From contig NC_017459.1 of assembly GCF_000237865.1 (NCBI RefSeq), positions 1,920,001-1,952,000 on the forward strand: a DNA stretch of 32,000 nt, read 5' to 3'. The position numbers and the translations under genes were made by a program. Under the pieces are notes generated by a model. The model ran no database searches and was not told the origin of the DNA. It saw nothing but the letters and a program-made list of their open reading frames with translations. The DNA is from Haloquadratum walsbyi C23 (GTDB lineage: Archaea > Halobacteriota > Halobacteria > Halobacteriales > Haloferacaceae). This document shows, one piece after another, positions 1,625 through 29,444 of the stretch (its first letter is position 1; each line of letters starts with the position of its first letter).

Positions 1625-1993
1625 GTGAACTACCCTGTCTTACCGCGCTCGGGGCTGCTCGTTGCTTTCCTCTTGCTTATTGAGTACAGGGTTTCCTGCT
1701 TCGCTTCGCTTCGCTGTCAGAAGCATAGTGAGGACATAGAGATTCCAGACTTCACGCGTGTGGTTCGGAGTGTCTCACTCTTACTGGATAGACACTCTGC
1801 CGTACTCGTCAATGCGTGCTTCTTCTCGCACCCGAATACGGCTGAGAACACGGCGAGCATCGTGTGAAACACCGAAAACACACAGGATGCTGATTGTATT
1901 GATCAAACCGTATGACAGAGTAATGACGGCGTTGTATCCCATCCCCGCCTTACTCACTCGCTTCGCTCGTTCCTTGAGGACGGCTTAGCACCT
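1625..1993 (-). mobile_element. Family A repeat, copy A1: internally deleted IS1341-type (IS200/IS605, TnpB-only) element with LE-like hairpin, decayed tnpB 3' end and RE
   Basis: The reverse strand starts with an LE-like hairpin region (AGGTGCTAAGCCGTCCTCAAGG...GGCGGGGATGGGATAC). Decayed coding sequence follows, still translating ...DTPNHTR...LTAKRSEAGNPVLNKQ. The element ends with stem CCCTGT/ACAGGG and terminal TAGTTCAC. Both termini match 9961-10330. Confidence 0.65.
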
Positions 1994-2416
1994 ATTGAAT
2001 AATAGATCGCTCTTATGAAGTACATTGTTGGTGGCGAGCAGTCGGGCGATTTTTTGTATTTCTCTACGGCGCCTGAGCTTCCCAGAACGAGAGTGAGACA
2101 GGGTGAAAGAACCGATTTACCGAATTTACTCAGTTCGGAGAGTCATCACCAACAATCTGCTTCACAAGAGCGTAATAGATAAAGTGGAAATCCTCTCATA
2201 GTGAACAACAGGACTTCCCACAAGCGGAGGGATACTGACTTGGGAGTTCACGGAGTATTATTTCTGAAGGGATACCAACAGTGCCGCACTACTGTACCAT
2301 GCCGCCATATGACATATTCGTCTGATGGCAGTACGTTCCACGGTGAACGGAAGAATCACAGTATTGCCACCATCTGATAGGACATATAAAATATCACTCA
2401 CTTTTACTCACTTTTT

Positions 2417-5346: not shown

Positions 5347-5895
5347 TGCTTGTTATAGCTGATACAGGCGCAATACCACGGTCTTCAGACCGTGTATACG
5401 CGCTGTCGCAGCCGGAGGTCGGAGGTTTCCGAACACTTTCTTTACAACATCATATAAGTATAATTATCGGCGCACTAGCTCTGACCCTGGTGTAGCCGAA
5501 CGCCTGAAACGTGGCGGTTCGAGTGTGAGTGTCCGCTCACGCTTGAAACAGGGTGTGCCTCATGTTGGAAGCAAACAACGCACCGGGCGAGCGTTAACGT
5601 AAGTAACACCGAGTCTGGTGACACCGACCACCAACCACCAATCCTATGACAAAACTAACACAGGAACACGTTTTCGGCTGAAGATAGGAGTATCGGGGGG
5701 AGGGGCTGAGATGTGGCACTCCCAATTGCAAGAGGCTGTCCATTACCTGGTTTCATACCGATTCGCACGGTGTGTGAGATTGGCAGTCTGCAAACCTGCA
5801 CCTGAAACCCCCAACTCAGCGCAGCGGCGCGGTGCCGTGGGATTCCTCCGCGTGAACGTGGAGGAGCATGTCAAGAACTGCTGATTCATCGCCGT
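5347..5895 (+). mobile_element. Family B repeat, copy B1: internally deleted IS1341-type element of a second lineage with LE hairpin, decayed tnpB 3' part and RE
   Basis: The LE is an imperfect hairpin, CGCAATACCACGGTC-TTCA-GACCGTGTATACGCG (5369-5402). One reading frame runs from a zinc-finger-like remnant (WRFECECPLTLETGCASC) to C-terminal GIPPRERGGACQ and is broken by four in-frame stops. The RE hairpin is CCTCCGCG-TGAA-CGTGGAGG (5845-5864), followed by CATGTCAA (to 5874). Confidence 0.65.
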
Positions 5896-8308: not shown

Positions 8309-8985
8309 CACGGTCAGATCAGCATGATGATTGACATCCTCCTCCGCGTTCACGCGGAGGAATCCCGAGCGTTGGGAGTTTCAGGTTTCACACTCCCACC
8401 GAACAACCAGCCAGTGCGAATCTGAAGGGTTGTTCGCGGTCTGATGTGGGTGGGACTGCTGGCGGTGCCAAGCCGCCGGTACTCCTATTCTCGACCATAT
8501 ACGGCGTCCAAGCGTTGTTTTTGCCGCAGGGACGCCGGCAGGCGTTAGCAAACTCGGAGTTACTTTCTGTGGTGTTTTCAAGCAGTCGGGCACAGCATCT
8601 GCATCTGCATCGGTTCAGTATCGGAACCGACCGTTCACCAGACTGGTTCCGATGATTGTCTTATTGCTTGGGGCGGACAGGCCGCCATCGTAGGACTGGC
8701 GGGAATCGCTCTGTTTCCAACCGATTCCTATTTAATCGTGTGATTGCCTGTGATTTAAATGTATGTATTTTGAAATTTAAATCGAGCGACGACAGTAGGA
8801 TTTTGGAGGGCGTGACGGCGCGTATCCACGGTCTGTAGTAGCTCACAGAAGAAGTGGGTGCTTGAGTAGACATGCATCAGTCAGAATAGTTCTCTCGCAT
8901 CGACTTAGTGAATAAGTTCACCCAGAAGTTTGTTGAATCACTAAAGGCCGTGGTATTGCGCCTGCTCAGCATATAAGTCTTGAAA
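8309..8985 (-). mobile_element. Family B repeat, copy B2, carrying a 107-bp insertion inside its LE hairpin loop
   Basis: The reverse strand begins ...TTATATGCTGAGCAGGCGCAATACCACGGCCTTTAG, then the insertion, then CAGACCGTGGATACGCGCCGTC. This is collinear with B1. It ends with C-terminal remnant GIPPRERGGGCQ, the perfect hairpin CCTCCGCG-TTCA-CGCGGAGG (8341-8360 on plus) and GATGTCAA (8331). Confidence 0.65.
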
Positions 8986-9025: not shown

Positions 9026-9964
9026 ATGACTCAATCAGTTCGAGTGGCTGTACCTCGAAAAGGTCGCCCACTGGAGGCAGTCCTCGAACGTATTGCAATG
9101 GTTACCGATGCTGAATCCGTCGTTGACGAGGTCATTTCGACACTGCGTCACGAGAAAGCAATCACGAAGGGAAGTATCGATCCGACAATGGACGTGTACG
9201 AGCGATTGTCAACTATTTCAACTCTTCATGATGAATATAAGCCAGAATATACACTTCGGCGAGATGACCGTCCTGGGATGCCACGTCGAATTGTTTTTGA
9301 TACTCTCACAATCGACATTTCTGGTATACCAGTACAACTTATTGGTCGCGAGGAGCCGTTTCGAGCATTGCGAACACATACATTCGGGCTTGGATTCGAT
9401 AGTGCCGACCTTGTGCTCGAGGAAGTTGTTGACCTTCGGGCAGATGGGATTGACTCAATCGATGAGATTAACGCGCGAATTGATCCGATGAACACTGATG
9501 TTCGTGTTGTGACGGGACTTGGTGATACAGTATATCATACGCTACTAGCACGCCCTGACGTACTTGATTATGATGTTTCACTTGATCGATCATTCATCAT
9601 TGAGTATCAAGGAACACTGTGTATTTCTCCAAGATACGAGCGGTTGGTTGAAGCTGTTCTTGGAACATACGCACTTGATGATGTGTCGTTCAAATATCCA
9701 CATGAAGAACAACAAGAAGAAGCAGCGATTTCGAATGCCGGTGTCGGGGTATATCTAACGGTGACTGGGTCAACCGCGCGTGAACATGGACTCGTAGTTG
9801 GTGAGGAGCTGTTTCCATCTGAAACAGTGTTGATGCAGAATAATGCAGAAACAACAGCGAAAACAGACCGTGTTCGCGATATATTAGCGACTTGTGAGAT
9901 GGAAGAAATGATGACTGAAATAAACACACAATCCCTAGACGCAAACAACAAAACTACAGAGTGA
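9026..9964 (+). CDS. Divergent HisG-like (ATP phosphoribosyltransferase fold) protein; function uncertain
   Basis: The N-terminal VRVAVPRKGRPLEAVLERI resembles the HisG start (RIAxPxKGRL...LL...G). FGLGFDSADLVLEEV resembles the GIxGxDLxxE block. YLTVTGSTAREHGL resembles the HisG signature DLVSTGxTLxxNGL. A TATA-like TTTAATTAAT lies about 25 nt upstream of the ATG. Confidence 0.5.
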   Translation: MTQSVRVAVPRKGRPLEAVLERIAMVTDAESVVDEVISTLRHEKAITKGSIDPTMDVYERLSTISTLHDEYKPEYTLRRDDRPGMPRRIVFDTLTIDISGIPVQLIGREEPFRALRTHTFGLGFDSADLVLEEVVDLRADGIDSIDEINARIDPMNTDVRVVTGLGDTVYHTLLARPDVLDYDVSLDRSFIIEYQGTLCISPRYERLVEAVLGTYALDDVSFKYPHEEQQEEAAISNAGVGVYLTVTGSTAREHGLVVGEELFPSETVLMQNNAETTAKTDRVRDILATCEMEEMMTEINTQSLDANNKTTE

Positions 9965-10330
9965 ACTACCCTAACCTACCGCGCTCGGGGCTATCAGCTC
10001 CTCGCTTGTTGAGGACAGGGCTTCCTGCTTCCATGTCGGAACTTACATTCAACGTGGACACATCGGTTCCTGACTCCACAGGCGACTTCCCTTCACGAGA
10101 GGTTCAAAGTAACCCACTCCTACCGAATCGACACTCAGCCACAATCAACGGTGCGCGCTTCTTGTCGCGCTTGAACACCGTTGAAGACGTGTGAGTATCG
10201 TACTATCGGCTACGACATGATAGTAAATGTGCCAGTGGAACTGTATGAACAGATGATGACGGCGCTGTATCCCCGCCCTCGTCCTACTCACTCGCATCGC
10301 TCATTCATTGAGGACGGGGGCTTAGCACCT
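9961..10330 (-). mobile_element. Family A repeat, copy A2
   Basis: The reverse strand starts with the LE-like hairpin AGGTGCTAAGCCCCCGTCCTCAATGAATGAGCGATGCGAGTGAGTAGGACGAGGGCGGGGATACAGCGCCGTCATC. The decayed coding part translates ...SPVESGTDVSTLNVSSDMEAGSPVLNKRGADSPERGRLG*. The element ends with stem CCCT..CCT/AGG..AGGG and terminal TAGTTCAC at 9961. Confidence 0.7.
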
Positions 10331-10439
10331 GTATTCAGCTAACATCGTGCGCTTAACCCAGAGTTGATACTATTATAGAGATTCAAGAAGAATACCTGCA
10401 GCTTTCGCTATCCCCAGAAAGCTATGAATTCTGATGTGC

Positions 10440-10985
10440 AAACGAGACTAGCGGTCTCGGTAACGCAGGATGAATCCGGCAATCCGGACTCATTCCACGT
10501 TCGACTGCTCACCCAAGATTTCAATCCGTCATTTTAATTCCTAAGCAACCCTTCTCAACAGAGGGATTAGATCGGGAACAGAGCGATTCCGATTAGTTCG
10601 ACAATGGCGGCTTCGCCACCCCAAGCAATCAAACAATAATCGGACCCGGTCAGGTAAACGATTGATTACGATACTGAATCGATGCTGTGCCCGACTGGTG
10701 TGAACATACAAAAATAACTCCAAGTACGCCGAGGTCTGCCAGACTCCCCGGGGCGGGGCATAACCAACCCTGGGAGTCCCAACATGGCTGAGGATAGGAG
10801 TACTGGGGGTTGAGATGTGGCACTCCCGGTAGTCCATCCCCACTCGACACAGTCTGTGAACCTCGGACGGATTCTCAGCATAATATTTGATGGGACTGCA
10901 ACCCTGAAATCTCCACCATTCACACTCAAGATTCCTCCGCGTTCACACGAAGGAGGATGTCAATCTCATGACCTTGCGGACAAGC
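10440..10985 (+). mobile_element. Family B repeat, copy B3
   Basis: A hairpin sits at 10468-10495. The region from about 10560 is collinear with B2 (AACAGAGCGATTCC...ATGGCGGC.T..CC.CCCCAAGCAAT...). The C-terminal remnant is KIPPRSHEGGCQ, followed by a degenerate RE hairpin (10934-10956) and GATGTCAA (to 10963). The left boundary is uncertain. Confidence 0.6.
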
Positions 10986-13457: not shown

Positions 13458-13583
13458 GTGAGTGAGTTTAGCTCGTCGGGTAGTTCCGAGGTTGTGGATG
13501 GAAAGCGCGTCATAGAAACAGGAAGCCCCACCCTCAAGTAGCGACCGGTGCAAGCCGTGAGCGAGTAGGGTGGGGTAGTTCAC
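13458..13583 (+). mobile_element. Family A repeat, copy A3: RE-proximal fragment only
   Basis: The plus strand translates ...VDGKRVIETGSPTLK*. A perfect 9-bp stem follows, CCCCACCCT (13526-13534) / AGGGTGGGG (13567-13575), and then terminal TAGTTCAC (to 13583). It starts immediately after the stop of the PhoU-domain gene. Confidence 0.6.
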
Positions 13584-14287: not shown

Positions 14288-15295
14288 TCAGCGCTCACGT
14301 CGACCAGCTGTTGCAGTAATGATTTTCTTAGGGGCAGTGATTATCGCTTCAAGAATCCCAGTTTCTTCGACTTCATCATCGTCACGAAGATATGAGCGAA
14401 CTCGCTGGCTGAGGAGTTCGACTGACCCGGCTAGAAGAACAACAAGAAGAATACAAGCCATCATCTCAGTGTAATGGAACGTTTTTCGTTGGATATCAAG
14501 CTCAAGCCCAAGTCCGCCTGCGCCAATAAGACCAAGTCCAATTGCGACTCGGACATTGTGTTCAAGATCGAATGCAATCCACGCAATGAATTGTCGGAAG
14601 ACTTGACTCAGCATCCCAAAGGAGACAATCTGGCTTTTGTTTGCGCCGGTGCTTTGGATTCCCTCAATTGGACCATCAGCGATTTCTTCAAGTTCATCAG
14701 TAAATAGTCGCCCAAGATATCCTGTTGTGTCAATCATAATCGCCAGTGTCGCAGTAAATGGCGTGACCCCACCAAGCGGAATCAGAATTAAGACCCACAC
14801 AAGTGCTGGGATTGCACGAATAAGGCTCATTGTTGCACGAAATACAAAATTGAATGGGTATGGGACGACACGCTCACTTGCCATGATACCAAATAATAAT
14901 GCCCCGGGAAGCCCAAGTATCGTTCCAGCAATCGCAATCGCAATCGTAATTTGAGAGGCGGCAAAGAGATTTTCCGCGATAATGAAGTTCCAATACTGCA
15001 TGAAATCAATAAATGGAATTCCATAATACGTTGTTGGAGGGAAGTACTCTCCAAGTGCTTCGGTGAACTGTGGAATCTGTGCAAATAACTCAGTAAGTGA
15101 AAAACCAACAGCATTTAGACTTGCATTGAATACAATTGCTGCTATGACAATACCGAGACCAGCGTATAGCCGGCGAACTGTCTTACGTCTGCGAAGATCG
15201 GTTAATTTTTTCTCGACTGAAGAGTCCCCGACAGAGGCAAGTCCAAAGTACTGTAACAGGTCGCGGAGTCGAGAGTCAGATGATTGAGAACTCAT
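14288..15295 (-). CDS. phnE: Phosphonate ABC transporter permease PhnE
   Basis: It is a multi-TM protein with the PhnE-type EAA-loop region (IDTTGYLGRLFTDELEEIADGPIEGIQSTGANKSQIV). It overlaps phnC by 4 nt (ATGA). Confidence 0.9.
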   Translation of the reverse strand: MSSQSSDSRLRDLLQYFGLASVGDSSVEKKLTDLRRRKTVRRLYAGLGIVIAAIVFNASLNAVGFSLTELFAQIPQFTEALGEYFPPTTYYGIPFIDFMQYWNFIIAENLFAASQITIAIAIAGTILGLPGALLFGIMASERVVPYPFNFVFRATMSLIRAIPALVWVLILIPLGGVTPFTATLAIMIDTTGYLGRLFTDELEEIADGPIEGIQSTGANKSQIVSFGMLSQVFRQFIAWIAFDLEHNVRVAIGLGLIGAGGLGLELDIQRKTFHYTEMMACILLVVLLAGSVELLSQRVRSYLRDDDEVEETGILEAIITAPKKIITATAGRRER

Positions 15296-16137
15296 GATTC
15301 TACTTGCCGCCCAATAACATCTACCTCATCAGTATCATCACTACCGGTTTCGGTGTCGAAACGAGTACCATCAGAAGTATTTACAGTTGAGTTATCGCTA
15401 TTATCAGTTGCAAGCCCAACCGTCTCGACATTTCCATAGAGATCGTCAACGAGACCTGGGGTAAGTTTCTCAGGACTGACGTCAAAGAGTATCTCACCAT
15501 CGCGGAGTCCAATAAATCGTTCACCAAAGTAAGCTGCAATATTTACTTGATGAAGACTGACGAGTGCAGTAACTTCATGAACGCTTGCTGCTTTTTTGAG
15601 ATAGTCCATTACACTCTCTGCACTTGAGGGATCGAGGCTTGCAACAGGTTCGTCCGCAAGAAGTAATGCTGGATCCTGTACAAGTGCTCGTGCAATTCCA
15701 ACACGCTGTTGTTGCCCACCACTCATCTGTGAGGTACGCTGATGTGACTCCTCAAGAAGGCCAACGGTCTGAAGTGCTTCAAGCGCGCGTTCTTTTGTCT
15801 CTTTATTTTGCTGTTGTAATAGACTGCTAACTGTCGACGTTCGATCAAGTGAACCAGTAAGTGCATTCATATACGCTGAAACACCATCAACGAGATTGTG
15901 TTGCTGGAATATCATCCCAATGTCAGAGCGTGAGCCATTGATCGGATCCCCATTAAGTCGAATCTCTCCTTCGGTTGGATGTGTTAGTCCGTTAACACAG
16001 CGGAGCATCGTTGACTTTCCAGCTCCTGATTCACCGAGAAGGACAACAAATTCATCTTCAATCTCGAATGAGACTGAATCGAGTGCAACGACGTCACCAT
16101 ATGTTTTTGTTACGTTATCTACAGTAAGTGTGCTCAT
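15292..16137 (-). CDS. phnC: Phosphonate ABC transporter ATP-binding protein PhnC
   Basis: It has Walker [13 protein letters not shown] signature [15 protein letters not shown], Walker [13 protein letters not shown] and a PhnC-like N-terminus. It also carries an acidic C-terminal tail. Confidence 0.9.
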
Positions 16138-16181
16138 AATAATTATCTTTAATAAAAGAGTTAGTTGATTGCTACCAGGGA

Positions 16182-17225
16182 TTAGGATCCAAGCTCGATT
16201 CCAAGATTATTGAGTCGTTTAATTACGGGTTGGTAGTCATCGATTGAGGTGTCACGGAGTGTTGTGAATGGTAAATCAGCCTCATTGTAATCCTCTGGAT
16301 AATACTGTTGAATTAAGCTTTTATTTGAGTTAACAAGAAGATCGCCAACCTGTGTTTTATACTCTGAATCCCAGGTTTTTCGGGCATATACTGGCTGTTT
16401 TGGAATCGGGAATGACCACCAGAATGGTCGGAATTTTGGTGACTCAGTATCAAGCACATCCAGTGCTGAACTCTTATCAATGACGCGTTGTGGAAAGTCA
16501 GATTTGTATGATGATGAGATATGTGGCATTCCGTTTCCACCATACGTGGTTGCTGCATCCGCCTCACCAGCACCAAGTTTCTCGAGTGCAACTTCATGAT
16601 TCGACCATGAGCCGGTGAAATCAACCGGGTCACCATCTGGGGCATCACCAACGTCTAGACCAGCTTGTTTCAGCGCATATGTTGCAAAGATTGATCCGCT
16701 TGTCGAGAGACGATCAGCAAAAGCCGCTGTTTTGTCTTCTATATCTTCGCGTTGTGTGATATTTGAGTCTTCATTTGTCAGCATTACTGAGAAATAAAAC
16801 GCCGACCCACCCGTGACGGTTGTCCCATATACATCCATTAAGTCGGGATTCGAAATAAGTGTAACATCGTCCATTCCAATTTCGGCTTGTTCACTATTGA
16901 GCGCTGGGCGAACTGCTGAGTAGTCTTGTGGAACTTGCATCTCAACAGTAACTTCATCAAGTTCACCTTCAATCATCGCTCGCATTGGTTCATACCGTGT
17001 CCGAATATCCGAAGGTGTTCCTGGCGTCAGCACCATGGTGATTGTCGTACCACCACCGCTCGCAGACCCGCCGAGCGTTCCACTACCACTACACCCGGCA
17101 AGCCCAGCAAGGACAGCGCTGGCACCTGCGGCAATAAATCCACGACGCCCTGTTAGCATACCGCGAGACTGATTTGTGTGATTTCGCTCCGGATTTACAT
17201 TCTGATCTTTCTTCTTCATCATCAC
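16182..17225 (-). CDS. phnD: Phosphonate ABC transporter substrate-binding lipoprotein PhnD (Tat signal + lipobox)
   Basis: It has a twin-arginine motif and lipobox (GRRGFIAAGASAVLAGLAGCSG) and a PBP type-2 body with a PhnD-like TSGS block (DRLSTSGSIFATYAL). The start is uncertain between 17225 and ATG 17159. Confidence 0.85.
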   Translation of the reverse strand: MMMKKKDQNVNPERNHTNQSRGMLTGRRGFIAAGASAVLAGLAGCSGSGTLGGSASGGGTTITMVLTPGTPSDIRTRYEPMRAMIEGELDEVTVEMQVPQDYSAVRPALNSEQAEIGMDDVTLISNPDLMDVYGTTVTGGSAFYFSVMLTNEDSNITQREDIEDKTAAFADRLSTSGSIFATYALKQAGLDVGDAPDGDPVDFTGSWSNHEVALEKLGAGEADAATTYGGNGMPHISSSYKSDFPQRVIDKSSALDVLDTESPKFRPFWWSFPIPKQPVYARKTWDSEYKTQVGDLLVNSNKSLIQQYYPEDYNEADLPFTTLRDTSIDDYQPVIKRLNNLGIELGS

Positions 17226-17491: not shown

Positions 17492-17941
17492 ATGGAGTAC
17501 GATGATCGAAATGATCGGACTATTCGATTTGAGCAGATTGCGCATGCGGAGATAAAAACACTCACAACCCTCGCAAACAGGGTGCTTGCGACCAATCCCT
17601 CGTTATCGGTCTTACAGGAGCCACATCCACAATTAATCATGCAACAGGTGACAGACCCTGTTGAACACCAGCAATTCAATCTTGGTGAGATAGTGGTCAC
17701 GCCTGCTGAGGTTTCGATTAATGATGCACAGGGATTCGCAATGTACCCAGGTAAACAAGAGCGAGCAGCGCTTTCGGGAGCGATTATTGATGCTGCGGTT
17801 GCTGGAAATCATACGCATGCTGAAATAATCCAAAATAAACTCGATACTGTGGATGAACGTCGCAAGCAACAGCGGGACGAAACATGGAGTGAAAGTCAAC
17901 ATACTGCAGTCGAGTTTGAAACAATGGAGAATGAGTTATGA
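17492..17941 (+). CDS. phnG: C-P lyase core complex subunit PhnG
   Basis: It is the first gene of the coupled operon. At 149 aa it matches PhnG in size. Its position before phnH-I-J and a 4-nt ATGA overlap with the next gene support the call. Confidence 0.8.
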   Translation: MEYDDRNDRTIRFEQIAHAEIKTLTTLANRVLATNPSLSVLQEPHPQLIMQQVTDPVEHQQFNLGEIVVTPAEVSINDAQGFAMYPGKQERAALSGAIIDAAVAGNHTHAEIIQNKLDTVDERRKQQRDETWSESQHTAVEFETMENEL

Positions 17942-18612
17942 GAGCTCTTGGGATTGATCCCATTCATGATACTCAAAAAACATTCCGAACGCTATGTGCT
18001 GTATTATCCAATCCAGGAACAATTGAACAGCACAGTGTCACTCCCGTTGATCACGCTGTCGTTGTGACGCTCGTTGATCATGAACTCCAAGCACAGATAG
18101 ATGATGAAAAGCTTCAAAAAGAGCTTGACGCACAAGGGCGATATGAAGATGCGGATGTACGTGAAGCGGATATTATTCATACGCGGGGGGTACCATCATG
18201 GGATATTCGAGATATTCCACGTGGAACACTGCTTGAGCCAAGTGATGGTGCAACAGTAATATATCGAGTTGAGACGCTTACAACAATATCATCACATTCA
18301 GCCGTCGAGTCTGATAATATCCATCAGGATGCGGTTGGGGATGACACCTCAATTACAGTGGTCACAATTGACGGACCGGGAGTTCCAACAAAGACAGGCC
18401 GAACAGTAGCGATTGGGCTTCCTCCAGAAGAGTTGGATCGAATTGCGACTGCGCAGTCAACGTATCCACGGGGTGTCGACGTGATTATCACGACTGCTGA
18501 GTCTATGCTTGCGATTCCTCGGTCAGCAAGCATATCAAGAGTCACGATTGAGCATGCTCAGTCGACAGTAACCGACGGGTCAGTGCGTGAACGCGAATCG
18601 GAGGCACGCTAA
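17938..18612 (+). CDS. phnH: C-P lyase core complex subunit PhnH
   Basis: The N-terminus (DPIHDTQKTFRTLCAVLSNPG) matches the PhnH pattern. It sits between phnG and phnI, and its stop overlaps the phnI start (TAATG). Confidence 0.8.
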   Translation: MRALGIDPIHDTQKTFRTLCAVLSNPGTIEQHSVTPVDHAVVVTLVDHELQAQIDDEKLQKELDAQGRYEDADVREADIIHTRGVPSWDIRDIPRGTLLEPSDGATVIYRVETLTTISSHSAVESDNIHQDAVGDDTSITVVTIDGPGVPTKTGRTVAIGLPPEELDRIATAQSTYPRGVDVIITTAESMLAIPRSASISRVTIEHAQSTVTDGSVRERESEAR

Positions 18613-19763
18613 TGGGATATGTTGCTGTCAAAGCTGGTGAGGAGCTTATCGAACGTGCGGCTGACCTCTTTGAGAAACAGCGTCTCAATGGCGACACCGA
18701 GCCAGTAAGCGTTGACCAACTTGAGGAACAACTTGGTCGTACAGTCGCACAAGTGATGAGTGAAGGAGGTCTTTATGCCCCTCGCCTCGCTGCGCTTGCG
18801 GTCAAACAAGCACAGGGGGATACAGTTGAGGCCGCTTTCCTCCTACGTGCGTACCGTTCAACGCTTGAGCGGTGGGATGAGACTGTTCCAGTTGATCCAA
18901 ATGAGATGTTTGCAACACGACGAGTCTCGCCTGCATACAAAGACGTTCCAGGTGGACAAATTCTTGGTCCGACAAAGGACTATACTCAGCGGTTACTTGA
19001 CTTCGCACTTACCAACGAGGGAAAAACCCAATCCGGCGGGACAAAGGAGCCAATGGATCCAACAGCCGAGTGGGATGTGACGACTGAGGAAGCGCCTGAA
19101 TCGCTCGCAAATGTGATGTCTGTGCTTCGGTCAGAAGGGCTCGTTCATGAGCCAGATTCACCTGAGATAACTGATCCAACAGACACGACACGTGAGTCGC
19201 TTACTCATCCGGCAGATCGCGATGCTATCTTACAGGAGTTAGCTCGTGGCGAAACAGGGGCAATGACTGCACTTGGATACTCTGCACTTCGCGGCTATGG
19301 GCAGGTGCATCCAACGCTTGCTGAAGTACGGATTGGGCGGCTACCGGTCATGATTGAGCATCCATATACTGAGGAGACTGCAACAATCACTGATATTGAG
19401 GTGAGCGAAAGCGAAGCAATCGTCCCTATCTACGCCAAGCGGGATGACCCACAGTTTGCATTTGGGTATGGGCTCACCTTTGGACGGAATGAGCGAAAGA
19501 CGATTGCAATGACAATACTTGATGCATCGATCCAACTTGATAGTGACGCTGAGCCTGCAGAAGATCCAGAATTTGTTTTAGATATTATCGACGGAATGGA
19601 CTCATTTGGATTTATTGAGCATCTTAAATTGCCACATTATGTAACATTTCAGTCAATTCTTGATCGAATCAGAGGGATTCGACAACGAACAGCAGATAGT
19701 GACAGCACTCATGCAACACAATCTGACGGGACGACAACAACGGAGGTTGAGTGTGATGAGTGA
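18612..19763 (+). CDS. phnI: C-P lyase subunit PhnI (ribose 1-methylphosphonate 5-triphosphate synthase component)
   Basis: It has the PhnI N-terminus MGYVAVKAGEELIERA, plus the blocks LAVKQAQGD..EAAFLLRAYRSTL and SALRGYGQVHPTLAE. Confidence 0.9.
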   Translation: MGYVAVKAGEELIERAADLFEKQRLNGDTEPVSVDQLEEQLGRTVAQVMSEGGLYAPRLAALAVKQAQGDTVEAAFLLRAYRSTLERWDETVPVDPNEMFATRRVSPAYKDVPGGQILGPTKDYTQRLLDFALTNEGKTQSGGTKEPMDPTAEWDVTTEEAPESLANVMSVLRSEGLVHEPDSPEITDPTDTTRESLTHPADRDAILQELARGETGAMTALGYSALRGYGQVHPTLAEVRIGRLPVMIEHPYTEETATITDIEVSESEAIVPIYAKRDDPQFAFGYGLTFGRNERKTIAMTILDASIQLDSDAEPAEDPEFVLDIIDGMDSFGFIEHLKLPHYVTFQSILDRIRGIRQRTADSDSTHATQSDGTTTTEVECDE

Positions 19764-20874
19764 AATAAATGCAGAAACAGACGCAGAAGTCAAAGAGGGT
19801 AATCAAGATGATAATGTCACAACTCAATCAAGAGATTATGCCGATCAGCACGCACATGATCAGCCCAAAGATGAAATGACCGAACCCAAGGGAAGTGCTG
19901 TTGAAACCGTTGATTCACTCCTCGGTGAGTTTGATGATGATGATAGCTTGTCAGGATACAACTATGCGTATCTTGATGAGCACACAAAGCGTGAAGTGCG
20001 GCGATCAATTATCAAGGCTATCTCAATTCCGGGACATCAAGTTCCATACGCTTCTCGACCGATGCCGCTAGCCCGTGGATGGGGAACTGGTGGTATTCAG
20101 GCGTCACTCTCACTGCTTGGACCTGATGATACATTCAAAGTGATTGATCAAGGGTCCGATGAATCGGTCAATGCAGCAAATATTAGACGGCTGGCATCAA
20201 ACACTGCTGATGTCGAAACAACGACTGATACGACAAACGCAGATATAATTCAAACTCGACATCGGATTCCTGAGGAAGTTCTCACCGATGAGCAAATTCT
20301 TGTATTGCAGGTTCCCGTCACTGACCCACTTCGGAAAGTTGACGGCTCCGATGCTGCGAATCGTCGACGGCATGCGCATCGTAATTACGGGAAAATGTGG
20401 GTACACCTCTATGAGAACGTCGTTGAGTGGGGTGAGATCAATATCGCCGCTCGATACCCAACAATGGTTGCTGGACGGTATTTGATGGATCCCTCTCCAA
20501 TCCCCCGCTGGGATGTGCCGAAACTTGATCATGCGGATTCATTGTTCATTTTCGCTGCTGGACGAGAAGCACGTATCTATGCTGTGCCACCACACACATC
20601 GGTCGAACCACTTGCATTTGAAGACCGCACATTTCAGGTTGAGCGCTTCCCCGACGTCAGTTGTCATGCATGTGGGTCGACCGATACGTATCTCACTGAG
20701 ATTGAAACAGATGATGGATCGGTCTACTACAGTTGTAACGATGCGTCCTTTTGTCACAAACGACAACAAAAACCCGAATTAGATCGTGATCATCATCTTG
20801 AGCAATCGATTGACGGGTGGGGTCCTGGGGTAAGTGATCCCGATTCTGGAGACACTGCAGGTGATACCGAATGA
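19756..20874 (+). CDS. phnJ: C-P lyase catalytic radical-SAM subunit PhnJ
   Basis: The sequence LSGYNYAYLDEHTKREVRRSIIKAISIPGHQVPY...GWGTGGIQ...IQTRHRIPE...GRYLMDPSPIPRWD...GREARIYAVPP is collinear with E. coli PhnJ as I remember it. The C-terminal Cys pattern is CHAC...C-x5-C. I chose ATG 19756, which overlaps the phnI stop by 8 nt, over the track start at 19660. Confidence 0.9.
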   Translation: MSEINAETDAEVKEGNQDDNVTTQSRDYADQHAHDQPKDEMTEPKGSAVETVDSLLGEFDDDDSLSGYNYAYLDEHTKREVRRSIIKAISIPGHQVPYASRPMPLARGWGTGGIQASLSLLGPDDTFKVIDQGSDESVNAANIRRLASNTADVETTTDTTNADIIQTRHRIPEEVLTDEQILVLQVPVTDPLRKVDGSDAANRRRHAHRNYGKMWVHLYENVVEWGEINIAARYPTMVAGRYLMDPSPIPRWDVPKLDHADSLFIFAAGREARIYAVPPHTSVEPLAFEDRTFQVERFPDVSCHACGSTDTYLTEIETDDGSVYYSCNDASFCHKRQQKPELDRDHHLEQSIDGWGPGVSDPDSGDTAGDTE

Positions 20875-21707
20875 GTATGAGATTACTCGAGGTATCAGAT
20901 ATAAAAAAGCAGTATGGCTCTGGATGCTCAGCGTGTATCGAACGCACTGGTGATGATGCTGGGACGAATCACTGTCCTGTTTGTGACACTGTCATTGCAT
21001 GTGCAAACATTAATTTGACAGTCGACGCTGGTGAGGTGCTCGGGATTGTTGGAGAATCTGGATCTGGAAAGTCAAGTCTTGCAGAACTCATTGCACTTGA
21101 GAAAGATGATGAGGGAGAAGTAGCTGGTGACATTTCATATACAGAATATGATGGCAATCTCTTAGCTGTTGATTATCAAACACGACATGAACTGAAAAAC
21201 ACCCATCTGAGTCTCGTACATCAACATATTCGGGATGGACTCGAGTTAGAGTTTTCTGGCGGCGGTAATGTTGCAGAAAAACTGCTTTCTGCTGGATGGC
21301 GGCGATATGATGATGTCCGTGAACGGGTCCGGAACTTGTTTGACGCAACTGAGATTCCTGTTGACCGGATGGACGACCCAACCCACACATACTCTGGCGG
21401 TATGCAACGGCGTGTTCAGATTGCGCGTGCACTCGCCAATGAGCCTGATATCATCATTCTTGACGAACCAACAGCAGGGCTTGACGTAAGCGTTCAGGCT
21501 CGTGTCCTCGATATGTTTCGACGGATTCAGCAAGCAAACAATGTTGCTGCAATCGTCGTTTCACACGATCTGAGTGTCATCCGGTTGTTGGCTGACCGAA
21601 CGGCGGTGATGCGACATGGACGGATTATCGAGTCGGGATTGACGGACCGTATCATGGAAGATCCACATCACGAGTACACACAGACACTCATTAATTCAGT
21701 AATTTAA
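20871..21707 (+). CDS. phnK: C-P lyase system ATP-binding protein PhnK
   Basis: It has Walker A GESGSGKSS, the signature YSGGMQRRVQIARAL and Walker B IIILDEPTAGLDVSVQA, with a PhnK-type C-terminus DPHHEYTQTLINSV. It overlaps phnJ by ATGA. Confidence 0.9.
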   Translation: MSMRLLEVSDIKKQYGSGCSACIERTGDDAGTNHCPVCDTVIACANINLTVDAGEVLGIVGESGSGKSSLAELIALEKDDEGEVAGDISYTEYDGNLLAVDYQTRHELKNTHLSLVHQHIRDGLELEFSGGGNVAEKLLSAGWRRYDDVRERVRNLFDATEIPVDRMDDPTHTYSGGMQRRVQIARALANEPDIIILDEPTAGLDVSVQARVLDMFRRIQQANNVAAIVVSHDLSVIRLLADRTAVMRHGRIIESGLTDRIMEDPHHEYTQTLINSVI

Positions 21708-21710
21708 CAG

Positions 21711-22655
21711 ATGACATCACAAGCAAATACAGACGATCGCACAAAGACTAAGACACAATCGATATCTCGAACAGAGCTATGTCGACCAGTCCTCACGGTC
21801 AAGCAATTATCAAAAACATTTGCACTCCACACGGTTGATGAAACGGAGGTTGTTGGACTTGATGAGGTCTCATTTCAGGTTACTGCCGGTGAGTTTCTTG
21901 GTGTTGTTGGTGAGTCGGGGTCAGGAAAGTCTTCATTATTAAAATGTATTTATCGAACATATCAAGCGACTGATGGGGATATTCTGTATCATCAGCGTGT
22001 GCAAAATCCGGGGGATGAATCGAGTGATGAAATAACGACTGAGATTAATCTTGTCTCCTGTTCAGACCGAGAAATCATTCGCCTGCGAAAAAACGCAATC
22101 GGATATACATCACAATTTCTTGATGAGATCCCACGAGTTCCTGCAGTTGATGTCGTCGCGCGACCGCTGTGCGAGCAGGGATTTGCAGATAAGAAGGCTC
22201 GTGAACGTGCAAAATCGTTATTATCGCAACTTCGACTTCCCAAGTCATTATGGGAGGCATACCCAGCGACGTTCAGTGGAGGTGAGCGACAACGGGTCAA
22301 TCTCGCACAGGCAATCGCACCAAAGCCTAATCTTCTCTTGCTTGATGAACCGACAAGTGCACTCGATCCAGAAACACGTCGTGCTGCGGTTGAACTGCTA
22401 GAAACGTATTTAGATGATGATACGACGGTTATCGGTGTGTTTCATAATGCGGATGTTGTCTCGGCTGTCGCCGACCGGATTGCCGTTCTTGATGAGGCAC
22501 AACTCAAGCGAATTGAACCCGCTGAGACATACTCAGCGACACACTCGCGCACCGACTCAGTTGCTGTCGACCAGGAGAAAAAAACAAATAACGACTACAC
22601 TGCAGATACTGCGGGCGATTCAGAGACGGACACTAACGGTGGAGACCCTCAATGA
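21711..22655 (+). CDS. phnL: C-P lyase system ATP-binding protein PhnL
   Basis: It has Walker A GESGSGKSS, the signature FSGGERQRVNLAQAI and Walker B LLLLDEPTSALD. It is the second ABC-type ATPase directly after phnK, and carries N- and C-terminal low-complexity extensions. Confidence 0.85.
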   Translation: MTSQANTDDRTKTKTQSISRTELCRPVLTVKQLSKTFALHTVDETEVVGLDEVSFQVTAGEFLGVVGESGSGKSSLLKCIYRTYQATDGDILYHQRVQNPGDESSDEITTEINLVSCSDREIIRLRKNAIGYTSQFLDEIPRVPAVDVVARPLCEQGFADKKARERAKSLLSQLRLPKSLWEAYPATFSGGERQRVNLAQAIAPKPNLLLLDEPTSALDPETRRAAVELLETYLDDDTTVIGVFHNADVVSAVADRIAVLDEAQLKRIEPAETYSATHSRTDSVAVDQEKKTNNDYTADTAGDSETDTNGGDPQ

Positions 22656-23911
22656 GTGATAATCAAACACAAAATGCGCACACCCACGATGGAGATAACG
22701 ATACTCGTGACACAACGAAATCAACACATGCCCAAAAGAAATCTCATGACGACACCCGTATCATGAGTGTTGTTATTGAAAATGGGCAGGTTGTCACGCC
22801 ATCGACCGTAATTAACGGTAGTATTCATATTGAGGGAGATCGAATTAAATCAGTCGGGGAGAATATCAAAAATGAGACACTATCCGCTGCGGACCGGCGC
22901 ATCGACGCCGCAGGGCAGTATCTCGTTCCAGGTCTTATCGATCTTCATGGTGATGATATTGAATCACATCTGTACCCACGAGCAGGCGCGCGAATTGAGA
23001 CACAGATGGCGTTGGCGAGTGCAGACCGCGCGAATGTCGCTGCTGGAATCACAACCAAATTTCATGCAATCTCGTTTGAGGTTGATCCCGAAGCAAATCG
23101 TTCACCTGAACTTGGCGCTGAACTCACCACGGCGGTTGAGCAAACTGATGGACTCATTGCTGACCACCGCATTCATGCTCGGTGTGAAGTGACACAGAAA
23201 CGCTGTGTTGAGGCGATTGAGACGCTTCTTGACGCTGACGACGCAGGATTGGTTTCGGTCATGAGTCATATTCCTGGTAAAGGGCAGTTTCGCGATACAG
23301 ATGCATTCATAGAGTATTATCGAAATTCGCAGAATCATACTGTCGCAGAGGCAGAAGAGATGATTGATGAGCGTGGCAGTCTTGAATTGGAGACAATTCG
23401 TGAACGAGTCCGTCGGATTGTTAACTGCGCACGCGATGCAGATATTCCAGTAGCATCACACGATGATGAGGATCCAACGGAGGTGGCGCAATTGCATGAT
23501 ATTGGTGTCAATATTAGTGAATATCCAATCAACATTGAGACGGCAAAGCGTGCTCATGCCACTGGGATGACTGTCACGATGGGAGCACCCAATCTCATTC
23601 GTGGGGAAAGCCAGTGGGGGAATCTCCGGACAGCGGACGCAATTGAGGCGGATGTGGTCGATGCGCTTGTCACAGACTATCATCCAATGTCGCTACTCGC
23701 AGCGGTATTCATCGATACGGGTGAGCCATTGCCAACGCGCGTTGCACGCGTCAGTAAGAATCCTGCTGATGCTATTGGGCTGACTGATCGTGGGCGCATC
23801 GAAGCTGGTGCACGTGCTGACATTGCAATGGTCGATCCCAATCCAACCCCAACAGTTACTCGTGCATTTGTCGCAGGGGCTCCTGTGTACCGTGCGGAGG
23901 GAGCAAAATGA
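22652..23911 (+). CDS. phnM: PhnM, amidohydrolase-family ribose 1-methylphosphonate 5-triphosphate diphosphatase
   Basis: It has amidohydrolase motifs (VPGLIDLHGDDIE; VASHDDED; DYHP), sits after phnL, and overlaps it by ATGA. The first 37 residues are a polar extension, so ATG 22763 is an alternative start. Confidence 0.9.
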   Translation: MSDNQTQNAHTHDGDNDTRDTTKSTHAQKKSHDDTRIMSVVIENGQVVTPSTVINGSIHIEGDRIKSVGENIKNETLSAADRRIDAAGQYLVPGLIDLHGDDIESHLYPRAGARIETQMALASADRANVAAGITTKFHAISFEVDPEANRSPELGAELTTAVEQTDGLIADHRIHARCEVTQKRCVEAIETLLDADDAGLVSVMSHIPGKGQFRDTDAFIEYYRNSQNHTVAEAEEMIDERGSLELETIRERVRRIVNCARDADIPVASHDDEDPTEVAQLHDIGVNISEYPINIETAKRAHATGMTVTMGAPNLIRGESQWGNLRTADAIEADVVDALVTDYHPMSLLAAVFIDTGEPLPTRVARVSKNPADAIGLTDRGRIEAGARADIAMVDPNPTPTVTRAFVAGAPVYRAEGAK

Positions 23912-24711
23912 GTACACAACAACCACAACTCGGTGCTGCGATGGATGTTCGATTTGGTATCTCAGTCGAATCATTTCTTGAATATATTACCGATCTGGGA
24001 CTCTCACATCTTGAACTCAAACGCGAGTATCTTGAAGGATTTCCAGACACACCAACGCCGGCAACACTTGGCGCGCTCACAGATAGATATGATGTCTCAC
24101 TTACCTATCACGCACCGTTTCGAGACTGGAACATGGGGAGTTTTAATGATGCTATTCGTCGAAATAGTGTTGCACAAGTGAAACAAACACTTGATGACGC
24201 TGCTGCGGCAGAGGCTGGTGGTGTTGTTGTTCACGCTGGGTCAGTCCCTCGTCGCTATCCTGAGTGGGTGCGAGAAAAAGCACATAATAATGCATGCAAG
24301 TCACTTCGAGAGTGCGCAGTCTACGCCGACCGTGTTGGTGTTCCACTCTGTGTTGAGAACCAACCAATAAGTGACCGTGATATTAGACATACAACAACAG
24401 TTGCTGATCTTGCATCAGCAGTATCTATTGACGGGACTGATGCATCACTTGATGTGACATTTGATATTGGACATGCGAATGTGAACGGGCATGAGTATCA
24501 AGAATTCGTTGAGAAATTTGGTGATCAAATCCGAGTCTGTCATCTGCATGATAATGATGGGACGAGCGACCAACATGAACCCCTCAGCGATTATGATAAA
24601 TTCGTGACAGCGATTCCAGCAGATTACTTTGTCTTCGAAATGACATCAGTCGCAGATATTGGAGTCTCGGTCGGCAGACCTGATGTTACTGTCCCTGAAT
24701 GTGAGTTGTAG
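23908..24711 (+). CDS. Xylose-isomerase-like TIM-barrel protein (sugar phosphate isomerase/epimerase, AP endonuclease 2 superfamily), last gene of the phnG-M operon
   Basis: The blocks LELKREY, TYHAPF, VVVHAGS, LCVENQP, FDIGHANVNG and CHLHDNDGTSDQHEPL are typical of the family. The start overlaps the phnM stop (ATGA). Confidence 0.8.
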   Translation: MSTQQPQLGAAMDVRFGISVESFLEYITDLGLSHLELKREYLEGFPDTPTPATLGALTDRYDVSLTYHAPFRDWNMGSFNDAIRRNSVAQVKQTLDDAAAAEAGGVVVHAGSVPRRYPEWVREKAHNNACKSLRECAVYADRVGVPLCVENQPISDRDIRHTTTVADLASAVSIDGTDASLDVTFDIGHANVNGHEYQEFVEKFGDQIRVCHLHDNDGTSDQHEPLSDYDKFVTAIPADYFVFEMTSVADIGVSVGRPDVTVPECEL

Positions 24712-26611: not shown

Positions 26612-27265
26612 CCCTGTCTCTTACCCACAACTCGAGTCAGGATTTTAGCGGAACGGAATCGGGATCGGCGAGCACGACAGGAAATCGTCGAGGACTTGCT
26701 CGATTCGGCTGAGGACCTCGTCCATGTCGATAACGTCCTGATGGACCGGGAGTTCGATAGCCAGCACCTCTTGGAGATGATTAGCCAGCGCGGGCTCTCG
26801 TATGTCGTTCCGAAGCGGATGCAGACCAGCGAGAGAGCTCAGACCAAGCGGTTGCTCCAGCGTGACCAAGACCGGTATGAAACTGACCGGAAGCTCCACC
26901 TCGACAAGAACGAGTGGCACGAGACGACGCTGATCTACCGACGCAAAGAGAACTCTGAACACGATGATCACCGACAGTACTCGGTGTTCATGTCCAACCG
27001 TGGCGGTGGATTCCTCAGCGAATACGGCTATCGCTGGGAGATTGAGAGCGGCTATCGGTCGATTAAGTGGTTCATGGTCGCGACAAAGTCAACGGATTTC
27101 GGGCTGCGGTTCTTCTACTTCGCGTTCGCCTGTTTGTTGTACTCGATTTGGCGAGCGGTCGATCTGCTCGTCCAAGTCAAGTTGACTGGAGAATACGAAC
27201 GGTCACCGATGGTGACTGCCGATAATACGCTCACGCTGTTGAAGAAGGAGACCGAAATCGGGTAG
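26612..27265 (+). pseudogene. 5'-truncated DDE transposase (ISH3/IS4-like), C-terminal portion only
   Basis: The open frame from 26612 reads ...AERNRDRRARQEIVEDLLDSAEDLVHVDNVLMDREFD...YVVPKR...YGYRWEIESGYRSIKWF...LLYSIWRAVDLL. It contains the second-D and E/Y-R-K regions of a DDE transposase. There is no N-terminal domain or first D. The fragment is visibly more GC-rich than its surroundings. Confidence 0.75.
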
Positions 27266-27855
27266 CACGGTGCTCTACCCGTGATAGAGCGTCGTCCGAG
27301 TGGCAATGCTACCGAAGGTTACAGAAAATCGTCCATATGGTAGGAACTTCAACAAGAATGGTCGTTTAGAGAAGGTTCTGAAGCAGTCTCCACTTATCGA
27401 TTCGGTCGAAACTACACATCACAGACCCGCTAAACCCACTGTAGTCTCAACTACTGGATCAGTACTTTGATATAGCGTTATATGGTTTATACGTCGCAAC
27501 GCGGACGGAGATTTGCCAGGAGATAATATATTATTCACCGGATACGTATGGAAATTTACCATACATCGCCATCAGCAGCACTGAGTACTGGCATTAATAA
27601 TAGTTTAGCACATCTACCAGATCAAATTTCATCTGGAAAAAGCAAGATTACAGGAAGAATTCAGTATACACACCCTGGATAAGAGCAGCAATTTGTAATC
27701 GCGTAGTTGAATAGAACCTGGACAGTGAACCTCGCTGACACAGACAAACTGTTTTAGCAATCGATAGACCTTGGATATTATCTCATGAGTAATTCCGCCA
27801 GTTTATGTGTGGGTGACTTCGGAGATGTGTGATGAGTATTGTTGCTACAGCATAA

Positions 27856-28959: not shown

Positions 28960-29444
28960 TAGCTCTCGCCTCCGGAGAGAATTTCAGTATCAGCGTTATC
29001 GATCATATCAGCGTCCTCACGGAGGGTATACCCACCGTGACGACCGCTGTAGGTGATAACACTCGCCTCTTGAAGTTCTGCGAGGGTTTTATCAAGCCGC
29101 TCTTCAATATTTTCTGAAACGATTGCAAGAAGCTCATCCCATTCGTGATACGTGTCCGCTGTGAGAGCGTCAATGACACGTGCTCTCAGAGAATTTGTCT
29201 GTGTGTTCGCCGAATTATTGGTATTTGTGTTCGTCGAATCAGTGTTTTGAGACGCTGTCTCAGTCGTAATAGACGAACGATCTGGGACAGTAAAGTCACG
29301 ACGACCCGCTTGGACCATCGTTCGGACGAACTCACTTTGACTCATATTGAGCGTCTCAGCATGAGTAACCCATTCTTGCTTCTGTGCGGGTGAAACGTAC
29401 GTCATTACGCTGGTGCGGTCGGTATTTGATTCAGTCTCAGACAT
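28959..29444 (-). CDS. Ribbon-helix-helix + C-terminal winged-helix DNA-binding protein coupled to the integrase
   Basis: The RHH-like segment is VMTYVSPAQKQEWVTHAETLNMSQSEFVRTMVQAGR. A low-complexity Thr/Asn linker follows. The C-terminal segment is wHTH-like (RVIDALTADTYHEWDELLAIVSE...ELQEASVITYSGRHGGYTL). Its stop overlaps the integrase start (TAATG). Confidence 0.65.
   Translation of the reverse strand: MSETESNTDRTSVMTYVSPAQKQEWVTHAETLNMSQSEFVRTMVQAGRRDFTVPDRSSITTETASQNTDSTNTNTNNSANTQTNSLRARVIDALTADTYHEWDELLAIVSENIEERLDKTLAELQEASVITYSGRHGGYTLREDADMIDNADTEILSGGES

Follow-up and report, generated by a model that had tools for sequence, protein, structure and literature searches.

A 378-bp HqIRS71-type PATE and its guide-RNA scaffold homologue at the stop codon of a HisG_halo gene in Haloquadratum walsbyi C23

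The host gene, the element and its ends

The window considered here is a stretch of 32,000 nt from Haloquadratum walsbyi C23 (contig NC_017459.1, forward strand, positions 1,920,001 to 1,952,000), with coordinates counted from its first letter. It contains a HisG_halo-family gene encoding a protein of 312 aa and, reaching into the stop codon of this gene from the opposite strand, a short gene-less element termed A2 (Table 1). Taken together, the evidence makes it likely that A2 is a PATE (palindrome-associated transposable element) of the HqIRS71 type that arose from an ISNph20-like transposon by internal deletion, that its family probably makes omega-RNAs, and that the A2 copy itself is most likely a relic, either inert or with weak function. 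The original prediction, made from the sequence alone, had placed the element at 9961-10330. The right end at 9961 stands, whereas the true left limit is 10338, directly after a TTAG tetranucleotide.

PATEs have been defined for the H. walsbyi strains HBSQ001 and C23, whose mobile elements were catalogued by Dyall-Smith et al. 2011 (PMC3119063). They carry palindromes close to both termini, lack terminal inverted repeats and target duplications, and are too short for a transposase; their ends are related to IS605-type transposons, and some were born by deletion of a transposon core. Their copy number is 177-194 per genome, commonly in intergenic DNA. In Table S9 of the same study the HqIRS71 ends are given as TTAG followed by CTGAATACAGGCGCTAAGC... 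and as ...GAAGCAGGAAGCCCCGCCCTCAGCGAGGCCGTCAGGCCGAGCACGGCGGGGTAGTTCAC, related to ISNph20 of Natronomonas; in Table S8 the members HqIRS72-78 of this group measure 340-396 bp, and HqIRS73-78 measure 368-396 bp. Read on the minus strand, the window has TTAG at 10342-10339 and then at once CTGAATACAGGTGCTAAGCCCCCGTCCTCAATGAATGAGCG..., and the element stops at 9961 with ...GAAGCAGGAAGCCCTGTCCTCAACAAGCGAGGAGCTGATAGCCCCGAGCGCGGTAGGTTAGGGTAGTTCAC, exactly the string quoted in the original prediction; the flank TCTGTAGTTTTGTTGTTTGC, which had been proposed there as the would-be guide, follows at 9960-9941. The A2 ends are thus the published HqIRS71/ISNph20 ends, namely TTAG followed by CTGAATACAGG.GCTAAGC... 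on the 5' side and ...GAAGCAGGAAGCCC...GGGTAGTTCAC on the 3' side. With ends identical to these and 378 bp in length, A2 is therefore a member of the published HqIRS71 group, that is, a gene-less mini-transposon of the IS200/IS605 family of a kind already described in H. walsbyi. With the published HqIRS71-type PATEs (HqIRS71-HqIRS80, PMC3119063) it shares the species, the TTAG target, both ends, the size range of 368-396 bp, a C-terminal tnpB remnant and the lack of inverted terminal repeats, target duplication and open reading frame (ORF); the A2 allele of the window differs from that of HBSQ001 at 11 positions. The region 9961-10338 should therefore be annotated as an HqIRS71-group PATE rather than as a novel element type, and the adjoining HisG_halo gene as intact; beyond this correct annotation the relevance of the locus is small.

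Palindromes are found near both termini of A2, and both ends align to full-length tnpB elements. The original description of an element that keeps only its omega-RNA-encoding end has to be revised, since the complete left end with its palindrome and the TTAG is also kept, which makes A2 a mobilisable PATE. All three frames are interrupted and none appears in the ORF list; 378 bp is too short for a transposase. There is no target-site duplication, as the flanks ...GATGTTAG and TCTGTAGT... lack a repeat and an allele with an empty site joins them once. Terminal inverted repeats were not seen when the 5' end CTGAATACAGG was compared by eye, with no dedicated repeat search run, to the reverse complement of the 3' end (GTGAACTACCC), the two sharing TGAA only. 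[quoted passage not shown] They resemble A2 in being short, non-autonomous, multi-copy and mobilised in trans, but both of their diagnostic features are absent from A2, and an assignment to MITEs is ruled out. A chance repeat is likewise ruled out by nhmmer E-values down to 1e-66 in other genera. The TTTACTAT motif within A2 was considered as a promoter and rejected, as it is part of a hairpin that covaries in the family alignment.

The host protein is 99% identical to CAJ52704 of H. walsbyi HBSQ001 and to CCC40712 of C23; its Pfam HisG match is below the cut-off, and PF25936 (HisG_halo) is on record for it. As noted in the original prediction, the TGA stop of this gene (9962-9964) lies inside the terminal GTGAAC of the element. 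The further claim that the insertion defines the C-terminus of the protein is correct in that terminal bases of A2 supply the stop, but trivial in its consequence, as the empty-site allele also encodes 312 aa. This allele (protein P0126, ...STD) is found on contigs L131 and L132, which read ...ACAGAC TGA ATCTTGCGCTTAACTCAGAGTTGATAC... and join the flanks of the window without an element. Excision of A2 in silico gives ...ACA GAC TAA CATCGTGC... on the gene strand; the TAA falls at the same codon, so that the ancestral gene already stopped there. Elements of the IS200/IS605 family insert 3' of their target without duplication. TnpA acting in trans would have pasted A2 as single-stranded DNA 3' of TTAG, with no target duplication, and the complement of this target (CTAA) would have contained the HisG_halo stop codon. 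The target complement C-TAA and the right-end complement G-TGA place a stop at the same offset (9959-9964, 10339-10342); hence the host length is kept and the only changes are D312E and a different stop codon. We note that family members thus preserve the length of the host ORF when the stop that they enter on the opposite strand reads ...C TAA.

At this site the insertion is also found in HBSQ001 and several metagenome contigs, and for C23 it follows from the protein, which ends in ...TTE. Judged from the alleles compared, it would be younger than the divergence from a related Haloquadratum lineage, provided that no precise excision took place there. One may ask whether A2 has been exapted by its host, either as a 3'-end structure or terminator of the HisG_halo gene or, by read-out transcription, as an antisense regulator. 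In favour of this, the stop codon adjoins the right end, the insertion has become fixed among the H. walsbyi strains sampled, and a transcript reading out of the element would run antisense to the final codons of the HisG_halo gene. Yet in the related lineage the gene has the same length and no element beside it, A2 evolves faster than the neighbouring non-coding DNA, PATEs are numerous and commonly intergenic in any case, and the sequence showed no feature particular to such a role; exaptation therefore appears very improbable to us.

Table 1. Features of the A2 locus and related copies in the window (positions in the window; -, minus strand; +, plus strand)
Feature	Positions	Strand	Basis or remark
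HisG_halo-family host gene, 312 aa	9026..9964	+	ORF list; third base of last codon (9961) and TGA (9962-9964) are element bases
A2, whole non-autonomous element, HqIRS71-type PATE	9961..10338	-	378 bp; ends, boundary regex, homologues
TTAG target tetranucleotide (TnpA target, expected TnpB target-adjacent motif)	10339..10342	-	5' of left end; complement CTAA would have held the ancestral host-gene stop
Left-end subterminal palindrome CCCCGTCCT ... AGGACG-AGGG	10276..10319	-	homologous to full-length left ends; match to right-end hairpin model weak
A2 central part	10086..10275	-	5'UTR-like left-end-proximal sequence and onset of tnpB-tail homology
GGAGTG-GGT-TACTTT hairpin in A2 central part	10106-10120	-	family alignment
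Omega-RNA scaffold homologue: closing stem CCUGU/GCAGG, P3, P4, right-end hairpin, terminal GUAGUUCAC	9961..10085	-	covariance model
Right-end subterminal palindrome GCCCTGTCCT ... AGGTTAGGGT, inner stem GGAGC/GCCCC	9968..10021	-	sequence and compensatory changes in the family
Frameshifted TnpB C-terminal remnant VDSVGVGYFE / SPVESGTDVST..MEAGSPVLNKRGA.. and stop	9966..10132	-	three-frame translation, BLASTP
Flank at the omega-RNA guide position, TCTGTAGTTTTGTTGTTTGC	9941..9960	-	by position only; antisense to last host-gene codons
A1, same family, strongly decayed	1625..2000	-	blastn 68% over 390 nt; nhmmer E 4e-37
A3, short remnant of a different subfamily; right-end hairpin and 3' strands of P3/P4	13471..13583	+	sequence, model R1

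Derivation from tnpB elements and relatives in other genera

A pattern scan of species-representative genomes (CAGGAARCCC-N30-60-GGTAGTTCAC) yielded at least 120 loci, mostly from haloarchaea. Many of them, among the matches listed, carry an ORF of 400-460 aa that terminates 8 or 18 nt short of the right end. One intact relative encodes a protein of 413 aa with the Pfam domains OrfB_IS605, Cas12f1-like_TNB and HTH_OrfB_IS605, which identifies it as TnpB. The full-length relatives measure 1.5-1.9 kb, and the boundary regex finds TTAG or TTAC 5' of the left end in most of them. Intact tnpB genes whose 3' end and right end align with A2, for which the original prediction had proposed a search, do exist.

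With the 378-bp element as query (nhmmer), A2 positions 1-110 (up to ~180 in some cases) match the non-coding left ends and 5' untranslated regions (5'UTRs) of full-length elements, and positions ~180-378 match the last ~160-200 nt of such elements, so that the proposed 220 nt of decayed coding sequence was an overestimate. The peptide SPVESGTDVSTLNVSSDMEAGSPVLNKRGADSPERGRLG, followed by a stop, can be read in one frame as described. Its assignment to the conserved C-terminus of TnpB is borne out by a pairwise BLASTP alignment of the joined remnant peptide to residues 367-408 of the intact 413-aa TnpB (43% identity, E 6e-8), but the similarity is confined to the last ~42 residues and needs one frameshift, VDSVGVGYFE and SPVESGTDVST..MEAGSPVLNKRGA lying in different frames. 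A Pfam search with the 44-aa remnant peptide gave no match, and A2 was not recovered at E < 0.01 when the window was searched by tblastn with intact TnpBs; the joined peptide alone aligns, as the remnant is short and frameshifted. By domain and tblastn searches the window holds no tnpA and no intact tnpB gene, the tnpB fragments at 13497-13565 and 30347-30511 being small.

We compare A2 with full-length, tnpB-only IS1341-type elements of the ISNph20/ISHwa28 type. Both ends, the TTAG, the last ~160-200 nt, the TnpB tail ...GVGHSE.TPVE...EAGSP.L and the helices predicted by RNAalifold are shared. The full-length elements measure 1.5-1.9 kb and encode a TnpB of ~410-420 aa, whereas A2 lacks ~1.2 kb including all catalytic domains; the A2 lineage furthermore has an extra ~16 nt after the first hairpin, and its helix P3 reads GGAAC/GUUCC where ISNph20/ISHwa28-type elements have GCGCU/AGCGC. 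In the proposed course of events, an ISNph20-like IS1341-type parent would have lost its core, joining the left end and 5'UTR-like part (~180 nt) to the last ~200 nt. The latter carry the tail of the TnpB C-terminus, the right end and the region of the omega-RNA scaffold; no protein is encoded by A2.

Elements of the A2 type, with the same right-end subtype and alignable over their full 376-380 bp, are present in Halorubrum yunnanense, Natrinema gelatinilyticum, Saliphagus and several metagenome-assembled genomes. The Halorubrum yunnanense copy (L012) has TTAG and the left end. None of the 13 sampled A2-type copies, among the matches listed, is associated with tnpB. All share the ~16-nt insertion, which shifts the old reading frame and therefore marks the A2 type as a non-coding lineage. 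Natrinema gelatinilyticum harbors A2-type copies at three different loci, from which it follows that the family has been mobile. As a separate observation on this genome, the copies on its chromosome (L014, 6558-6742) and on a plasmid (L055, 1429-1613) have in common a GC-rich, hairpin-like insertion of ~60 nt between P3 and P4 that is missing from the third copy (L059), indicating recent mobility of the variant. An 898-aa "ORF" beside a further copy (L061) was considered as a parent tnpB and rejected as merely an open frame in high-GC DNA, because the L061 copy is a PATE of ~370 bp.

The guide-RNA scaffold and the state of the A2 copy

RNAalifold, applied to 38 intact tnpB 3' ends, returns a closing stem CCUGU/GCAGG, helix P3, helix P4 and a right-end hairpin; one pair of P4 is changed on both sides in 17 of these sequences. 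A covariance model (R1) was built solely from 36 intact tnpB 3' ends and used to search the window with filters off. It matches A2 over 9961-10085 (-) with 85.4 bits (E 1e-16) and all 128 model positions. This score lies below those of intact elements (114-147 bits) and within the range of other TnpB-less relatives (70-97 bits). A model derived from intact tnpB 3' ends thus recovers TnpB-less copies, and together with the nhmmer matches it upholds the original view of A2 as a TnpB-less IS1341-type derivative that keeps the segment formed by the 3' end of tnpB and the right end. The two other members of the three-copy family named in the original prediction are also found. A3 scores 64.6 bits at 13488-13583 (+), where the right-end part is kept and P3/P4 are deleted, 13 nt standing in place of 46 model positions; A1 is decayed and scores 25.4 bits at 1625-1752 (-), with P3/P4 lost. 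Left-end hairpins are matched weakly and by the right-end hairpin part of the model only, at 10269-10345 (23 bits) and 1945-1983. The suggested check with omega-RNA covariance models is hence positive for R1 but negative for Rfam, whose families match nowhere in the window at gathering score and, within 9800-10500, not even at E up to 10.

The right-end stem covaries massively across the at least 120 loci from other genomes (e.g. CCCCACCCT/AGGGTGGGG, CCCTACCCT/AGGGTAGGG, CCCCTGCCT/AGGCAGGGG and CCCCGCCCT/AGGGCGGGG). The covariation first described for A1, A2 and A3 agrees with this, all three stems being present in the sequence. However, TnpA of the IS200/IS605 family recognises subterminal hairpins at the ends of its elements. 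The right-end stem beside TAGTTCAC is such a TnpA-recognised subterminal palindrome, matched by one at the left end, and for this reason is not by itself evidence for an RNA. Covariation was also counted in an independent MAFFT alignment of 14 TnpB-less copies from several genera with a hand-written structure. In these copies 93.4% of cells are paired, compared to 33-41% in slid controls, and 13 pairs are changed on both sides, a number matched by none of 500 shuffles. Five of the 13 double-sided changes fall in interior helices outside the right-end palindrome, and several pairs are G-U. Covariation in these interior helices (P3/P4) is better evidence for an RNA than that of the right-end stem.

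These data bear on the view that the covarying helices serve only the single-stranded DNA steps of excision and integration by TnpA, and that TnpB-less copies make no guide RNA. TnpA does recognise subterminal DNA hairpins, A2 carries similar ones at its left and right ends, and covariation is strongest in the right-end palindrome. But P3 and P4 lie ~65-105 nt inside the right end (P4 at ~75-95 nt) and nonetheless show the five double-sided changes, several pairs are G-U, either invariantly or frequently, as suits an RNA of the same strand more than DNA, and sotRNAs and omega-RNAs map to the same region of intact haloarchaeal elements. We regard a role confined to DNA as unlikely. As helices are kept by compensatory changes in copies that lack tnpB, the family probably still makes omega-RNAs, for which a compatible TnpB would be needed in trans; by the same sequence comparisons, the A2-type family is probably still under selection for the omega-RNA scaffold.

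Related RNAs are known. Sense-overlapping RNAs (sotRNAs) at the 3' end of IS1341-type tnpB were described in haloarchaea, and a PATE with fused left and right ends, VNG_R0052, is expressed in Halobacterium salinarum, the same being predicted for other haloarchaea (Gomes-Filho et al. 2015, PMC4615843). Haloarchaeal sotRNAs are now equated with omega-RNAs (Rfam RF02656/RF02657; PMC12558985), and PATEs are stated often to encode omega-RNAs that depend on TnpB in trans (Meers et al., PMC10055086). Standalone omega-RNAs are reported to work in trans with compatible effectors (Altae-Tran et al., summarised in PMC10691335). Covariation of the helices without a nuclease gene supports this published view of PATEs as possible carriers of guide RNAs. 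The sotRNAs, with VNG_R0052 as a transcribed fused-end PATE among them, are non-coding and overlap the 3' end of an IS1341-type tnpB, the segment to which the A2 scaffold is homologous; A2 differs in belonging to another sequence subfamily, and no Rfam family matched the A2 region. With the standalone omega-RNAs of OMEGA systems and with PATE omega-RNAs it shares the bounds set by transposon ends, the absence of nuclease and transposase, the retained omega-RNA region and the guide position outside the right end. For standalone omega-RNAs function in trans has been shown experimentally, whereas for A2 such a function is a prediction, and the copy looks eroded. The proposal of an orphan guide served in trans is therefore an established concept applied to a catalogued class of elements (PMC3119063, PMC4615843, PMC10055086, PMC10691335). 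It is possible, and we suggest it tentatively, that the A2 type (376-380 bp) could be a long-lived, genus-spanning lineage of nuclease-less transposons carrying only a guide RNA, with a selected omega-RNA scaffold (the ~16-nt insertion and the re-paired P3), hyperparasitic on ISNph20-like TnpB and TnpA, and with a mimicry of ends that would allow them to occupy host stop codons while the length of the protein stays the same.

Identity between the window and HBSQ001 is 99.5% in the HisG_halo gene, 98.2% in the downstream non-coding DNA and 97.1% in the PATE. Three of the 38 pairs of the consensus scaffold are broken in A2. The window allele has a C-A mismatch in P4 and an A-C mismatch in the inner right-end stem, and its outer right-end stem has one G-U pair and one mismatch; the HBSQ001 allele has a U-C mismatch in P4 and a C-A mismatch in the outer stem. 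The fold of A2 has a z-score of -1.46, and its minimum free energy (MFE) structure is not the consensus fold. At -29.7 kcal/mol the consensus fold lies 11.8 above the MFE of A2 itself, the weakest energy and the largest gap in the family sample. By comparison, the TnpB-less copies L012 and L059 and the intact element L016 have z-scores of -3.5 to -3.8 and an MFE structure of the consensus architecture, with consensus-fold energies of -50.2 (L012) and -56.5 kcal/mol (L059), the range for relatives outside Haloquadratum being -44 to -58. The z-score of A1 is +0.7. As helix-breaking substitutions accumulate and the insertion is old and common to several strains, A2 is most likely a relic with weak function or none; judged from its sequence and modelled folds, it appears to be an old, drifting and eroding copy rather than an active guide module.

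If A2 were instead an active orphan omega-RNA module, a minus-strand transcript would provide a scaffold bound by a TnpB encoded elsewhere, for example by an intact ISNph20-type ISHwa28. The guide in the flank (TCTGTAG...) would then direct cleavage of the empty TTAG site (TTAG-TCTGTAGTTTTGTTG), and recombination would restore the excised PATE. When TTAG plus the would-be guide was sought elsewhere in the window, only the locus itself was found. The full-length R1 match of 85 bits is consistent with an active module, as are the intact closing stem and P3 of A2, the changes in P1, which all turn G-C into G-U pairs, the covariation in family copies without tnpB, and the precedents of standalone omega-RNAs acting in trans and of an expressed PATE RNA in Halobacterium. 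IS1341-type loci are also among the highly expressed genes of natural H. walsbyi populations. These points are opposed by one mismatch each in P4 and in the inner and outer right-end stems, which differ between alleles, by the weakest consensus-fold energy, the largest gap to the MFE and the z-score given above, and by a divergence faster than that of the adjoining non-coding DNA. With respect to possible partners, Table S8 of PMC3119063 has one intact ISNph20-type tnpB in HBSQ001 but none for C23, and the tnpA genes are reported there as pseudogenes, all of them in C23 and all but one in HBSQ001. An orphan guide served in trans is accordingly plausible at the level of the family, but the A2 copy is rather disfavoured by its broken pairs, weak fold and fast divergence, and we consider its activity doubtful.

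Several points speak against our preferred reading of A2 as an eroding derivative of a family with a selected RNA scaffold. Three C-to-T changes in the GGAGTG/TACTTT hairpin all turn G-C into G-U pairs, which could hint at residual constraint at the RNA level. The G+C content of the window is ~47%, and a low host G+C is by itself enough to lower folding energies. A scaffold that is weak in silico could be stabilised in vivo by high salt and bound protein. A parent tnpB with the scaffold subtype of A2 was not found among the matches listed. The covariation count used a structure obtained from related sequences, and shuffle tests are inflated by relatedness; moreover, transposition of single-stranded DNA, instead of an RNA, could be what the helices serve.

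Variant alleles and other mobile DNA in the window

Metagenome contig L125 (ENA ERZ24790406), compared with window positions 9026-10400, has a HisG_halo gene of 99.6% identity and a PATE at the same site of 91.8% identity. Its sequence is unrelated from 12 nt beyond the left end of the PATE, with an acyl-CoA dehydrogenase in place of PhoU; a breakpoint of recombination or replacement seems to coincide with the boundary of the element.

A second PATE, of the HqIRS56 type, occupies 8331-8971 (-) just upstream of the HisG_halo gene (TTATA followed by TGCTGAGCAGGCGCAATACC ... GGAGGAGGATGTCAA). The palindrome at its left end is split by an insert of ~115 bp (~8831-8945), in the manner reported for SMR elements, whose targets are PATE palindromes. 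This block of ~642 bp is absent from the metagenome contigs L122, L125 and L126 and present in HBSQ001 (L124), and hence is strain-variable. A degenerate HqIRS56-like copy with 68% identity and opposite orientation lies just past the left end of A2 (10574-10963), and HqIRS56-like end fragments are found at 5365-5388 and 5839-5874, so that PATE debris surrounds the HisG_halo gene. Of the two A2 relatives, A3 is preceded by TTAG at 13467-13470 and has a tblastn match to TnpB residues 397-419. A further tnpB pseudogene fragment at 30347-30511 (+) corresponds to TnpB residues 158-214 (tblastn, E 3e-6) and possibly extends to 30687, with a faint C-terminal match at 30595-30687.

Among the remaining genes, a phosphonate C-P lyase cluster (PhnG, H, I, J, ATPases, an amidohydrolase and a TIM-barrel protein; 17492-24711) stands beside a phosphonate ABC (ATP-binding cassette) transporter (14288-17225), an arrangement that is ordinary for H. 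walsbyi. A remnant of a DDE transposase (26696-27265), a tyrosine integrase (27856-28959, -) and a DUF5805 gene (28959-29444, -) follow, and the region 26696-29444 may be the edge of an integrated element.

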